From Eledone cirrhosa (lineage: Eukaryota): a DNA stretch of 64,000 nt. The stretch spans positions 31,868,001 through 31,932,000 of the forward strand of contig OZ024759.1 in the NCBI GenBank assembly GCA_964016885.1, given 5' to 3'. The translations under genes were made by a program, and so were the position numbers. The notes beneath the pieces are model-generated. The model did no database searches. It had not been told where the DNA came from and saw nothing but the letters and a program-made list of their open reading frames with translations. Below are positions 3,380-53,700 of the stretch, piece by piece; position 1 is the stretch's first letter, and each line of letters opens with the position of its first letter.

Positions 3380-3409
3380 TCATATATATATATATGAAAG
3401 AATTGCTTA

Positions 3410-3732
3410 AATATATAGACAGACTGAATAAAAAATGGCGTAGACATACAACACAACAGGAGGAACAATGAATATAACACCACTGACGATGTTGCAGATG
3501 TGCAACGAAAGATTTATGTAAATTATGTAAACTATATATATGTGTTTGTGTCTATATTGTATCTGTATTATTTTTGACCGCCGGTCAGTCAATGGCAACA
3601 TTGAGGACCGAGTAAGTTAGATCGCAGATATAAAAGACAGCGAGAAGCGAAAACCAACCAAACAGTGAGTGTGTTCTGTTATTAATTCTGGCAATATTAC
3701 GCAAATATGACCCTCCCCAAATATAACAATAT
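3410..3732 (+). mobile_element. Solo pseudo-LTR of Penelope family A with HHR-like core at 3479-3520
   Basis: Near-identical to 37590-37916, downstream of the GIY-YIG ORF. Contains CTGACGA-T-GTTGCA/TGCAAC-GAAA. Confidence 0.85.
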
Positions 3733-3877
3733 ATATATATATAAATATAATGTAGGAGGTGAGTTTTATTGTAGTACAATAAAGCAATGCAGATATCGGA
3801 TAAGAAGCACTCTACAGTTTGTGGGACTGGAGTATGCATAATATAAGATCAAAAGATGGTTAAAGGAGTTCCATATA

Positions 3878-3944
3878 TTTTATTATGCGCATTTCAAAAA
3901 CAAACATCATCATGCAATAATATTTGTGTTTTCATCAGATAAAA
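3878..3944 (-). ncRNA. Hammerhead ribozyme (family B, minus arm)
   Basis: Reverse complement of the 4075-4141 motif. Confidence 0.85.
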
Positions 3945-4074
3945 CAGGAGAACATGATATGAAGGCTAAAAAACACTTGTTGATAGTGCAGTTTTAAATC
4001 AACATATGTTGATATGTTGATTTAAAACTGCACTATCCACAAGTGTTTTTTAGCCTTCATATCATGTTCTCCTG

Positions 4075-4141
4075 TTTTATCTGATGAAAACACAAATATT
4101 ATTGCATGATGATGTTTGTTTTTGAAATGCGCATAATAAAA
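4075..4141 (+). ncRNA. Hammerhead ribozyme (family B, plus arm)
   Basis: TTTTAT-CTGATGA-[AAACA...TGTTT stem II]-GAAATGCGCATA-ATAAAA. Stem I is perfect, helix III is the palindrome ATGCGCAT, and the site is AUA. Confidence 0.85.
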
Positions 4142-4349
4142 TATATGGAACTCCTTTAACCATCTTTTGATCTTATATTATATATAAATATATATATATA
4201 TATGTACACACACACACACATCATATATATATATATATGAAAGAATTGCTTGAATTAAAATGTCTAGCTACGCATTTGGGGAACGCTCGGGTGTTATTAT
4301 GAACACCACGGAGGTGCTAACGGACGTAATCACCTAACCCAACATCCGG

Positions 4350-6237: not shown

Positions 6238-6512
6238 AGTATAAAGTATAACATATAAAAGAGAAAACACAGGTAAGCATTAAGAGAAGGATTTTATCCA
6301 GGTATTTACGACCGTTTCATTGGTAAGTGCAACCTTATATTGCTATACTGCAAATAGCAGCCACTCAATTATAATTGTTGTTCACAGTCCAAATACTGAT
6401 ATTTGCAGTATAGCAATATAAGGTTGCACTTACCAATGAAACGGTCGTAAATACCTGGATAAAATCCTTCTCTTAATGCTTACCTGTGTTTTCTCTTTTA
6501 TATTTTATACTA
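6238..6512. mobile_element. Fold-back short repeat with HHR 3'-half-like GAAACGGTC
   Basis: Arms at about 6245-6356 and 6400-6511. GAAACGGTCGTAAATACC is present but no CTGANGA was seen. Confidence 0.6.
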
Positions 6513-6586
6513 TATATATATATAAGACATACGCATACATTCACACACACACACACATATTCACATTCATATACAGACATACATGC

Positions 6587-7397: not shown

Positions 7398-7437
<40 letters not shown>

Positions 7438-7440
<3 letters not shown>

Positions 7441-8046
7441 GTGGCTGCCAACTCGTTTTCGAGTACGGCCACTACTTTATATCCATGTAGGAGAACCCCT
7501 ACCGATGGGCTGAACGAGTGTGACTTTTTAGTCCAGCCAGCGACTTGAAAACTCTGGTACAAACACTACACTGGTGACAATTATTGACACACAGTGTTGG
7601 ACCCATGGTACCATGTCACGACAAGTGTAGAGAGATCTCCAGATATAAAGCAATGTCTGTGCCGTGAAGCTTTTATAGTGAGCAAAGGCACTGCACAAAG
7701 ACAGTCCCACTCTCTTAACCAAGATGATATTTACCAAAAAGAAGAACAAGTCATCATCATTGGATACCATCAGGGTTGCAGGTGTTATATCAGAGTTTTC
7801 CTTCTCCTAGAATTCTGCCTTGACAAAGGCTAAGGGGTCATCTCTCCCGGTGATTTTGGATGGGCATTGACTCTTAAGAGCTCCGTTGCCCTTTGACAGG
7901 TTTTGGTTTTAGTCCTGCAGGATGTCCAAAGTCACCCTTCCCACCAACAAACCTTGGTGGGGTTGCCAGTTTAGTCGCCAACGACCCAACCATGGGACAG
8001 GTTGTACTGGGATACATGTTACCAGTAGCACCAACTGGTGACCTGA
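7438..8046 (-). mobile_element. ~610-bp non-autonomous RTE-derived retroposon (copy 1)
   Basis: Highly similar to 52973-53581 in the opposite orientation. Its 3' end resembles the RTE 3' ends in this window. Confidence 0.75.
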
Positions 8047-8154
8047 CATATATATACATACATACATACAAGTTTATCCCGGGTTCAATCAGGGGTAACC
8101 ACAGTAAGTAAGGTACTCAATACAAAGCAGAGTATAATTATTTAATATAGAAAT

Positions 8155-8205
8155 GGCTTCTACAGGACTAGAACTGTTTCATTCGGGAGAAATCATCAGG
8201 AAGCC
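8155..8205 (-). ncRNA. Hammerhead ribozyme (family D) within fold-back 8070-8260
   Basis: Reverse complement of the 2851-2901 motif, followed immediately by a plus-strand copy (8206-8250) that lacks the 5' strand of stem I. Confidence 0.85.
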
Positions 8206-8404
8206 CTGATGATTTCTCCCGAATGAAACAGTTCTAGTTCTTTAGAAGCCATTTATATAAATATATACTACGGACTCCAGAAATAGCCGTCGAAACGGCT
8301 TGAGCTCTGCCGTCGGGGTCAAACATTTTCCTATATATACTACGCATATATATGATGTTTCTGTTCTTGAGAAAGTGGGCACCACACGTATTTAGAGGAG
8401 GATT

Positions 8405-40631: not shown

Positions 40632-42310
40632 TAGTGTCTAGAGAAGCGTTTCTCAAACTGTTTACTTTTGTAGAAACTTTGAAATAATTTTCATGTCTCT
40701 TATAACGACCTAATTTGAAACCTTTATTATATGAAAGTGTCAGAAGTGTTTCGTCACATTGAAAAGGCTACAGTAGTGTGACGAAAACTGCCCTAGTGTC
40801 TAGAGGAGCGCTTCTCAAACTGTTTACTTTTGTGGAAACCTTGAAATAATTTTCATGTCTCTTATAACGACCTAATTTGAAACCTTTATTATATGAAAGT
40901 GTCAGAAGTGTTTCGTCACATTGAAAAGGCTACAGTAGTGTGACGAAAACTGCCCTAGTGTCTAGAGGAGCGCTTCTCAAACTGTTTACTTTTGTGGAAA
41001 CCTTGAAATAATTTTCATGTCTCTTATAACGACCTAATTTGAAACCTTTATTATATGAAAGTGTCAGAAGTGTTTCGTCACATTGAAAAGGCTACAGTAG
41101 TGTGACGAAAACTGCCCTAGTGTCTAGAGGAGCGCTTCTCAAACTGTTTACTTTTGTGGAAACCTTGAAATAATTTTCATGTCTCTTATAACGACCTAAT
41201 TTGAAACCTTTATTATATGAAAGTGTCAGAAGTGTTTCGTCACATTGAAAAGGCCACAGTAGTGTGACGAAAACTAGCCTAGTGTCTAGAGGAGCGCTTC
41301 TCAAACTGTTTACTTTTGTAGAAACTTTGAAATAATTTTCATGTCTCTTATAACGACCTAATTTGAAACCTTTATTATATGAAAGTGTCAGAAGTGTTTC
41401 GTCACATTGAAAAGGCCACAGTAGTGTGACGAAAACTAGCCTAGTGTCTAGAGGAGCGCTTCTCAAACTGTTTACTTTTGTAGAAACTTTGAAATAATTT
41501 TCATGTCTCTTATAACGACCTAATTTGAAACCTTTATTATATGAAAGTGTCAGAAGTGTTTCGTCACATTGAAAAGGCTACAGTAGTGTGACGAAAACTG
41601 CCCTAGTGTCTAGAGGAGCGCTTCTCAAACTGTTTACTTTTGTGGAAACCTTGAAATAATTTTCATGTCTCTTATAACGACCTAATTTGAAACCTTTATT
41701 ATATGAAAGTGTCAGAAGTGTTTCGTCACATTGAAAAGGCTACAGTAGTGTGACGAAAACTAGCCTAGTGTCTAGAGCAGTGTTTCTCAGACTGTTTACT
41801 TTTGTAGAATCTTTGAAATAATTTTCATGTCTCTTATAACGACCTAATTTGAAACCTTTATTATATGAAAGTGTCAGAAGTGTTTCGTCACATTGAAAAG
41901 GCCACAGTAGTGTGACGAAAACTAGCCTAGTGTCTAGAGCAGTGTTTCTCAGACTGTTTACTTTTGTGGAAACCTTGAAATAATTTTCATGTCTCAGAGA
42001 ATTATCTCTTATAACGACCTAGTTTTAAATAATAAAAGAGTTTGAAACCTTTATTATATGAAAGTGTCAGAAGTGTTTCGTCACATTGAAAAGGCTACAG
42101 TAGTGTGACGAAAACTAGCCTAGTGTCTAGAGCAGTGTTTCTCAGACTGTTTACTCTTGTGGAAACCTTGAAATAATTTTTATGTCTCAGGGAATTATCT
42201 TTTATAACGACCTAGTTTTAAATAATAAAGGACTTTGAAGCCTTTATTATAAGAAAGGGTCAGAAGTGTTTCGTCACATTGAAAAGGCCACAGTAGTGTG
42301 ACGAAAACTG
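40632..42310. repeat. Satellite: eight 162-bp units plus two ~193-bp units
   Basis: TAGTGTCTAGAG starts at 40632, 40794, 40956, 41118, 41280, 41442, 41604, 41766, 41928 and 42121. Confidence 0.95.
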
Positions 42311-42543
42311 ACCGAAACATTAAAGGATTACATTAAGTATTAAAATGACACGAGAAAGACATTAAACACTCATGTGCTGAAAGAGCAATGAAATATATTT
42401 ACGAAAAGAAATAGAAATAAAAATACACAAGGAAAAAAACCTGAGTAGCTTTTAAATTCCGTCCATTAACTCTGTGTTGGTGGGTCTACCTCTACACCAT
42501 ATATATTATACTGATACATAAAAATGTATATATACATACATAA

Positions 42544-50481: not shown

Positions 50482-50771
50482 ATTTATATGTATGTGTGTG
50501 TGTGTGTGTGTATTTATATATGTGTATATATATTTATGTGTATATATATGTGCATATATATTTATGTATATATATATATAATATATAAGATCAAAAGATG
50601 GTTAAAAGAGTTCCATTTATTGTACTACAATAAAACTCACCTCCTACACCCCCCCCTCTAAATAAAATATTTTTCCCAATATCACACATCAATCTAAAAT
50701 TACTTCTCATATGTAGATTTAAAACTGCACTATCCACAAGTGTTTTTTAGCCTTCATATCATGTCCTCCTG

Positions 50772-50836
50772 TTTTATCTGATGAAAACAAATATTATTGC
50801 ATGATGATGTTTGTTTTTGAAATGCGCATAATAAAA
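50772..50836 (+). ncRNA. Hammerhead ribozyme (family B)
   Basis: TTTTAT-CTGATGA-...-GAAATGCGCATA-ATAAAA, in rearranged family B pieces at 50580-50870. Confidence 0.85.
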
Positions 50837-50929
50837 TACATGGAACTCCTTTAACCATCTTTTGTTCTTATATATATATATATATACGATATTAAACAAA
50901 TGGAAACTATATTTATAAAAAACATATTT

Positions 50930-50993
50930 ATTTCGTTATATATATTTCTGGGATATCATATTAAAAATATGGTATGCCTTCCTCAGACAAAAT
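50930..50993 (-). ncRNA. Hammerhead ribozyme (family H, minus arm)
   Basis: ATTTTGT-CTGAGGA-...-GAAATATATATA-ACGAAAT. Confidence 0.75.
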
Positions 50994-51130
50994 ACAATAT
51001 ACAAGCTGTTTTATAAATAATTTTGACATACCTTAGAATAATGCAACTTCGATTTAAATCAACTTTTTAAATGGAAGTTGCATTATTCTAAGGTATGTCA
51101 AAATTATTTATAAAACAGCTTGTATATTGT

Positions 51131-51194
51131 ATTTTGTCTGAGGAAGGCATACCATATTTTTAATATGATATCCCAGAAATATATATAATGAAAT
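51131..51194 (+). ncRNA. Hammerhead ribozyme (family H, plus arm)
   Basis: ATTTTGT-CTGAGGA-AGGCATACCATATT/AATATGATATCCCA-GAAATATATATA-ATGAAAT, with palindromic helix III ATATATAT. Confidence 0.75.
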
Positions 51195-52842: not shown

Positions 52843-52972
52843 TATATATATATTTTTTTTGACATAGTTCTTTAATACGATATATGATGGTATCATATTA
52901 ATTTAATATATCATATTAATTTAATATGATATCTGATGGTATCCAATGATGTATGTATGTATTTATGTCAGG

Positions 52973-53581
52973 TCAGGTCACCAGTTGGTGCTACTGGTAA
53001 CATGTATCCCAGTACAACCTGTCTCATGGTCGGGTCGTTGGCGACTAAACTGGCAACCCCACCAAGGTTTCTTGGTGGGGAGGGTGACTTTGGACATCCT
53101 GCAGGACTAAAACCAAAACCTGTCAAAGGGCAAAGGAGCTCTTAAGAGTCAATGGCCATCCAAAATCACCGGGAGAGATGACCCCTTAGCCCTTGTCAAG
53201 GCAGAATTCTAGGAGAAGGAAAACTCTGATATAACACCTGCAACCCTGATGGTATCCAATGATGTTGACTTGTTCTTCTTTTTGGTAAATATCATCTTGG
53301 TTAAGAGAGTGGGACTGGCTTTGTGCAGTGCCTTTGCTCACTATAAAAGCTTCACGGCACAGGCATTGCTTTATATCTGGAGATCTCTCTGCACTTGTCC
53401 TCACATGGTACCATGGGCCCAGCACTATGTGTCAGTAATTGCCACAAGTGTAGTGTTTGTACCAGAGTTTTCAAGTCGCTGGCTGGACTAAAAAGTCACA
53501 CTCGTTCAGCGCATCGGTAGGGGTTCTCCTACATGGATATAAAGTAGTGGGCGTACTCGAAAACAAGTTGGCAGCCACCAT
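52973..53581 (+). mobile_element. ~610-bp non-autonomous RTE-derived retroposon (copy 2)
   Basis: Structured 5' leader, TAGGAGAAGGAAAACTCTGA motif, and 3' end GTACTCGAAAACAAGTTGGCAGCCACCA followed by microsatellite. Confidence 0.75.
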
Positions 53582-53700
53582 GTATATGTACATATGTATA
53601 TATGCACATGTATGTATGTATGTATATGTATATGTATGTATGTATGCATATGTATGTATATATGTATATATGTATATAAATGTATGTATATGTATGTATG

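Follow-up and report, generated by a model that had tools for sequence, protein, structure and literature searches.

Inverted units made of 5´-truncated pLTR arms, of which one alone carries a tail, were published for EN+ Penelope-like elements (PLEs; PMC8557442, legend of fig. 2; PMC3846280), and the palindromes at their junctions were explained by self-priming (PMC3846280). As far as the consulted sections of the respective reports go, the formation of inverted ends in PLEs, the closest relatives of telomerase, was called unsolved (PMC8557442, PMC11167929). The Hydra clade was described as a group of C-terminal EN+ PLEs, which in the supplement of that report includes Hydra-1_Obim (PMC8557442). 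Penelope was found to possess an internal promoter within its pLTR (PMC2377424), and dimerisation was expected to be a requirement for PLE hammerheads of the type with a short helix III (PMC4209133). On the biochemical side, the Poseidon PAc protein was revealed to cut and to extend both strands in vitro with uncleaved RNA serving as template, whereby reverse transcription starts at two internal sites which flank the tail (PMC11167929).

The locus analysed here is a stretch of 64,000 nucleotides from Eledone cirrhosa (the window), surrounded by a 3.0 Gb genome that is rich in microsatellites. It contains two inverted repeats of one family, which the original prediction had placed at 3746-4178 and 59242-59662 and which were found there, with arms that are 98-99% complementary to each other and with 96.8% identity between the copies across their full extent (Table 1). 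An 88-nt extension, the tail, is present on the left arm alone in both copies. With the EN+ PLE units, as portrayed in the consulted parts of the literature, they share the head-to-head arms, the one-ended tail, the junction palindrome, the hammerhead within the pLTR and the (TA)n targets; they differ in the length of the tail, 88 nt instead of 30-40, and in a stop at a single letter, accompanied by an extra G, for roughly half of the arms. As (TA)n stands at both ends, a target-site duplication is not readable for either copy.

Table 1. Copies of the hammerhead-bearing family in the window (r, position in the reference copy; a slash within a motif marks the turn point)
Feature	Position	Strand	Detail
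Copy 1, long arm (pLTR and tail)	3750-4007	-	r3474-r3731
Copy 1, tail, long arm only, between two putative priming sites	3750-3837	-	r3644-3731
Copy 1, type I hammerhead motif	3878-3944	-	CUGAUGA core from 3938, predicted cut after 3884
Copy 1, junction filler GTTG	4008-4011	+	flanking arms both end at r3474; final letter G
Copy 1, short arm	4012-4181	+	r3474-r3643, end is (TA)n
Copy 1, type I hammerhead motif	4075-4141	+	core 4081, predicted cut after 4135
Copy 2, long arm	59242-59499	-	r3474-r3731; tail 59242-59329; hammerhead core from 59430
Copy 2, arm overlap ATAT	59496-59499	.	4-nt microhomology at the putative RNA 5´ end
Copy 2, short arm	59496-59662	+	r3474-r3640; hammerhead core 59565, predicted cut after 59619
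Mini insertion, same family	50583-50648	.	short arm (minus, ~50583-50615) joined to tail fragment (plus, 50616-50648)
Solo 5´-truncated arm	50646-50873	+	r3411-r3640; passes the turn point as TCTC/ATATG; hammerhead core 50778

Copies of the family were located in the genome by exact word searches, with a 27-mer derived from the ribozyme yielding 21,512 exact matches, and are numbered after a reference copy (L031:2317-6047, r1-r3731) in which CATATG lies at r3473, CUGAUGA at r3543 and the predicted cut after r3597. The copy at this reference locus is long, its ORF of 800 aa encompassing RT and GIY-YIG (YRDD, IYEC...YFG), and the tail is directly joined to r1 at 195 tandem tail-to-ORF junctions. 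The ORF-bearing long copy and the tandem junctions together identify the hairpins as the pLTR end of an autonomous PLE. A Pfam profile search of the ORF named no family at E 0.1, hence the assignment to the EN+ Penelopes rests on motifs and on the likeness to listed Hydra proteins: the ORF carries HSDKTNN (DKT), CNCRIKNKC (CxCx5C), ICNLC (CxxC) and ICLH (CxH) of the Hydra-type set, reads RLRWTA or RLRWIA at the RWK position, where RW is retained but K is not, and is devoid of CCHH (CX2-5CxxC) over the endonuclease region, which was read through. Comparison with the Hydra clade, as far as it is set out in the consulted parts of PMC8557442, revealed RW, DKT, CxCx5C, CxxC, CxH, the absence of CCHH, a hammerhead and the insertion into (TA)n as common properties, and by eye the ORF resembles the Hydra proteins listed there; the 3.7 kb unit, RWT or RWI in place of RWK, an N-rich linker and another hammerhead are different. 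Two short DNA words of the family found no match in the supplement of that report, where Hydra-1_Obim is listed. Judged by these motifs, both hairpins are best classified as head-to-head pLTR stubs of an autonomous Hydra-clade PLE whose layout was already known and whose family would be Hydra-type and new, the two window copies being likely dead stubs. The N-rich stretch (L031:4200-4400) forms the linker between RT and endonuclease and recalls the N-rich inserts described for rotifer Penelopes in the consulted part of PMC3846280, and the 3´ untranslated region harbours an imperfect direct repeat of ~220 bp (L031:5330-5760) which varies among subfamilies.

At the centre of copy 1 the A of ATATG is the last letter of each arm and GTTG, which looks like a templated insert, separates the two, giving an imperfect palindrome, whereas the palindrome of copy 2 is perfect and its arms overlap by ATAT. 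The two copies, which had been suggested to be the same fold-back formed twice, share the turn site but differ in the build of the junction. Arm variants match within a copy and differ between copies, as had been pointed out (ATATGG in both arms of copy 1, ACATGG in both arms of copy 2), and the single arm mismatch of copy 1 (3981 versus 4038) falls on a polymorphic site. The copy near 50700 indeed displays the unfolded upstream sequence; the region 50583-50873 looks like a composite of a mini insertion with a short and a long part, followed by a separate arm with other variants. Copy 1 is itself inserted into the (TA)n end of a solo tail-less pLTR of a Neptune-like family (window 3398-3745).

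The arms contain a candidate type I hammerhead with CUGANGA and GAAA cores, an NUH site and stems I-III, whereby stem I comprises 6 bp (TTTTAT/ATAAAA in the plus-strand motif of copy 1), stem II 12 bp that are maintained across variants, and helix III is short and palindromic (TGCGCA in the same motif). Rfam returned no hammerhead family, neither at the gathering score nor at E 10, and the matches at E 10 were generic hairpins below threshold, e.g., MIR529, which were rejected. The idea of a ribozyme placed on each strand is borne out by the motif, which is present on both strands, but RNA transcribed across either hairpin is predicted to pair into a duplex of 163-166 bp (about -270 kcal/mol) that would trap the ribozyme; with the ribozyme buried in this predicted duplex, its presence on both strands is likely to be a by-product. 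Such long perfect hairpins could feed small-RNA silencing. The predicted cut site was also considered as a major template end and rejected as such, since the excess of arms which start to differ from the reference there (214, as compared to 96 one base upstream) is a weak and indirect hint of self-cleavage, about 17 of 30 cut-site loci being true breaks by eye; according to these counts a ribozyme-cut template would at most constitute a minor class. Among the matches listed, symmetric hairpins with both arms starting from the predicted cut site are found at L255/L256 (G000:C1:244900699-244900754) and at G000:C8:59937947-59938002. The type I hammerhead within PLE-derived pLTR sequence is shared with the non-LTR retrozymes (bioRxiv 10.64898/2026.07.22.740005), which in the consulted part of that report are head-to-tail tandem arrays; identity with them was rejected, as the window hairpins are head-to-head stubs and their family is coding.

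Arm ends were assessed in an unbiased sample of 63 C1 segments anchored on the ribozyme, which yielded 48 head-to-head pairs, 42 of them classifiable at both ends, next to 6 unclassifiable pairs and 30 unpaired arm segments. All 42 classifiable pairs possess one end at r3731 (tail) and the other at r3633-3652 (tail-less); an exception within the sample is the segment C1:10047400, which carries two long arms 2.2 kb apart. A long and a short arm were likewise found for 97 of 97 partnered arms in a set of 120 arms picked for stopping at r3474, where a few hairpins count as two rows. The short end is followed by a predicted bulged hairpin; a similar CTC...GAG(C/T)GCTT word lies behind the long end, but its predicted fold is unlike that at the short end.

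As to the inner ends, the turn at CATATG had been regarded as reproducible, which is true for about half of the arms reaching it, while other turn points are spread across the element. Mapped genome-wide they show one strong hotspot at a single letter, r3474, the A of ATATG: 9,681 arms carry r3476-3499, 3,875 of which (40%) continue to r3470. Perfect CAACATATGTTG hairpins occur 705 times genome-wide and the reversed control pattern not once (0), hence these hairpins are not due to chance. Arms end at this A even without a partner arm. A non-reference base precedes r3474 immediately in 3,320 arms genome-wide, as compared to 298 arms for the position one base further in. It is G in 1,703 of these arms and A or T in 1,617 taken together (~25 A when the first 100 were counted by hand). 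At the control position (298 arms), a hand count likewise covering the first 100 rows gave 19 with G. Examination of 70 G arms, 47 of which are short arms, revealed that in 37 the G derives from neither the partner nor an insert, including 5 partnerless arms in which it separates (TA)n from r3474; the other 33 divide into 12 partner-templated cases, 12 with a single central G:C (ambiguous), 7 ends of templated inserts and 2 unclassified ones. At some junctions both arms carry an extra base (CAACATAT-C-AT-G-ATATGTTG). The TTTC/ATAT context at r3474 resembles an initiator. For L1 and SVA, untemplated G at complete 5´ ends was attributed to reverse-transcribed cap in the consulted part of PMC4859970, and a literature look-up found no earlier paper on a cap or untemplated-G signature in the hairpins considered here. 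Going by the G signature, r3474 is likely a capped transcription start within the pLTR. Two large hairpins turn elsewhere (L055/L056 at r2863; L076 at r2969), with both arms beginning at one shared non-hotspot letter, as expected if cDNAs ran off one broken RNA or snapped back.

A second hammerhead family (window 50976-51148; L336-L405; 147 exact matches) also possesses long and short ends. Its stop site, TTTC/ACTACC, is not a palindrome and its junctions are ragged: 37 of 73 arms end at this edge or up to 17 nt downstream, 2 within the 12 nt that adjoin it upstream, and the remaining 34 read through or carry indels, 5 indel variants having been put aside by eye for this count. G is present in 2 of the 4 arms starting exactly at the edge, one of them partner-templated, which makes the family weak support for the extra G. 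GTTGATTTAAA was considered as the shared start of this family and rejected, as the word belonged to the partner arm.

The reading favoured here, with a probability of roughly 0.7, is twin priming, in which the A of ATATG would be the capped 5´ end of the RNA, where both cDNAs run off before they are end-joined. Initially, an endonuclease would cut both strands of the (TA)n target and each 3´-OH would prime reverse transcription, one at r3731 and the other 88 nt further in. The template would be uncleaved RNA starting in the pLTR at TTTC/ATATG, so that cDNAs of 258 and 170 nt, respectively, would have reached its 5´ end, where RT may often add C opposite the cap. The cDNA 3´ ends would then be connected, be it through annealed ATAT as in copy 2, through blunt or filler joins, or through templated inserts as in copy 1, after which each cDNA would be extended on the other. 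The palindrome would govern the neatness of the join and not the position at which the arms stop, ATAT serving as microhomology only, and the arms would share their end letter because that letter is likely the capped RNA start, rather than through fold-back.

The existence of two antisense cDNAs, neither copying the other, is suggested by the reach of the arms: neither arm contains the other in 26 of the 42 unbiased pairs, and the further-reaching arm is the short one in 26, the long one in 7 and neither in 9 ties (p 0.001; 26 versus 6 after fixing one duplicated locus and one junction). Where one arm is at the hotspot and its partner stops early, the early-stopping arm is the long (tail) one in 45 cases and the short (tail-less) one in 5 (p 4e-9); 9 of these 45 long-arm stops cluster at the second priming site, which is not significant overall (p 0.09). 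At the same time the arms agree with each other, within perfect hairpins at 504 of 515 diagnostic sites with 211 discordant sites expected (37 of 41 intact pairs, 51 loci), and within non-nested pairs at 108 of 111 sites, against an expectation of 39 discordant ones (assessed for the 23 of 45 pairs that overlap enough). Concordance and non-nesting together indicate that both arms come from the same source sequence and were each primed on RNA; concordance may instead reflect subfamilies active at different times and not one RNA molecule, and the two primers would sit either on one RNA molecule or on two sister RNAs. It is the thousands of young copies that allow for such a count-based test, which favours two RNA-primed cDNAs, and a single-base prediction for the capped start follows from the copy counts.

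Twin priming was reportedly described for L1 by Ostertag and Kazazian in 2001. L1 inversions are not known to duplicate the arm and use variable sites, whereas the sites are fixed here, lie 88 nt apart and give overlapping arms. Internal priming on the RNA from the second target nick and an extra 5´ G at complete ends are common to both systems, as judged by the consulted part of PMC4859970. With the Poseidon PAc protein the favoured model shares two RT starts around the tail, the cutting and extension of both strands and the uncleaved RNA; inverted products are not addressed in the consulted sections of that study, where the start site is equal between strands (PMC11167929), whereas each insertion here appears to use one site per strand.

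No ORF-linked tandem copy out of 30 has its start at r3474, which, together with the 40% read-through, demands that another template, longer or circular, exists. Either a ribozyme-cut circle or a tandem transcript of greater length might explain both the read-through and the ORF-linked copies. At two loci (L075:1041-1951, r338 to r3597; L067:634-1805, r614 to r3467) the ORF-start region is rejoined to the pLTR; these resemble short monomers copied repeatedly and are a possible trace of circular templates.

Among the alternatives, one retains twin priming but regards r3474 as an RT pause or as the end of an uncapped processed RNA, with the G resulting from a terminal-transferase or microhomology bias. 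The lack of ORF-linked tandem copies beginning at r3474 would be in line with this, as would the 33 of 70 G cases of other or ambiguous source and the G which precedes 5 of 12 ATA sites in the partner strand. It accounts poorly for the single-base sharpness (3,320 versus 298), for the G located between (TA)n and r3474 without any partner and for the initiator-like context in two families, and is considered unlikely.

The mechanism originally proposed was a snap-back, i.e., cDNA stopping at the palindrome, folding on itself and being copied back into the second arm, and self-priming of this sort is also the model put forward in PMC3846280. The 705 perfect palindromic junctions and the concordant arms are as it would predict, 16 of the 42 pairs are nested or tied (ties and long-further pairs), templated inserts at junctions are local DNA copy-back, and the cDNA end is predicted to pair weakly with GATATG near r3520 (-2.5 to -3.9 kcal/mol), where three junctions lie. 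A copied-back arm must however sit inside the tail-bearing arm, and the tail-less arm is not contained in it in 26 of 42 pairs and in 45 of 50 early-stop cases, which refutes snap-back as the general rule. Nor are G arms that are short in 47 of 70 cases producible by snap-back from the long arm, and a perfect junction from CAACATAT-ended cDNA would need a stem of 1 bp with a 2-nt loop, which is absent from the predicted fold. The stop furthermore occurs without a partner arm and with the extra G, and the sharp edge of the second family is non-palindromic. Snap-back is thus judged improbable as the general route, being a possible explanation for the ties and for the few junctions near r3520.

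A ready-made hairpin copied as a unit, the arms of which are kept alike by gene conversion, appears very improbable. It might account for 7 private alleles common to both arms (versus 38 in one arm only) and for identical haplotypes at several loci, but the same turn is found on many haplotypes with differing junction fillers, and the arms of old copies are just 87% alike. The private divergence of the unpaired tail (0.0059) is close to one half of the divergence between arms (that half being 0.0041 per site). Arm homogenisation, named at the outset as the alternative to snap-back, is not needed. Perfect palindromes are a known class of artefact. A fold-back artefact of assembly or of long reads has next to no likelihood even though none of the read sets examined was seen to span a whole window copy, as unmirrored flanks and the one-sided tail argue against fold-back read chimeras, arm mismatches and fixed ends point the same way, raw Illumina reads of another study (run X24) show an opposite-strand joint at r3474 (96 reads with one start), and a contig of run X1, possibly the source sample, spans the centre and extends 44 letters to either side of it. 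In many further X1 contigs r3474 is connected to other positions, and a junction filler is found there in a contig from a different organism (X5).

Taken further, twin priming might be obligate for the integration of PLEs, with two fixed start sites on a single RNA that is capped and uncleaved, where the leading cDNA is chased or displaced by the trailing one; priming in the 5´ pLTR of this message would then yield only strong-stop-like hairpins which record the transcription start, and ORF-bearing copies would come from another template, e.g., a ribozyme-cut circle. This generalisation is tentative. If true, it would replace the published self-priming model and render PLE transcription starts readable from genome sequence alone.

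Other repeats of the window deserve mention. A Neptune-like Penelope (35250-37916) encodes RT thumb and GIY-YIG in its head-to-head arms, carries one hammerhead core on the minus strand (35498) and one on the plus strand (37668), has a tail on a single arm, and obeys the rule of one long and one short end. Further head-to-head hairpins belong to several unrelated families (1728-1881, 2429-2569, 6240-6516, 8146-8259, 14118-14273, 20934-21054, 27976-28123, 28628-28811 and 38710-38850); most of them are situated in (TA)n, and some possess hammerhead cores as well as a tail on one side. A tandem array with a unit of ~162 bp occupies 40606-42313, and a dispersed repeat of 632 nt is present at 7416-8047 and, inverted and 96% alike, at 52972-53603.
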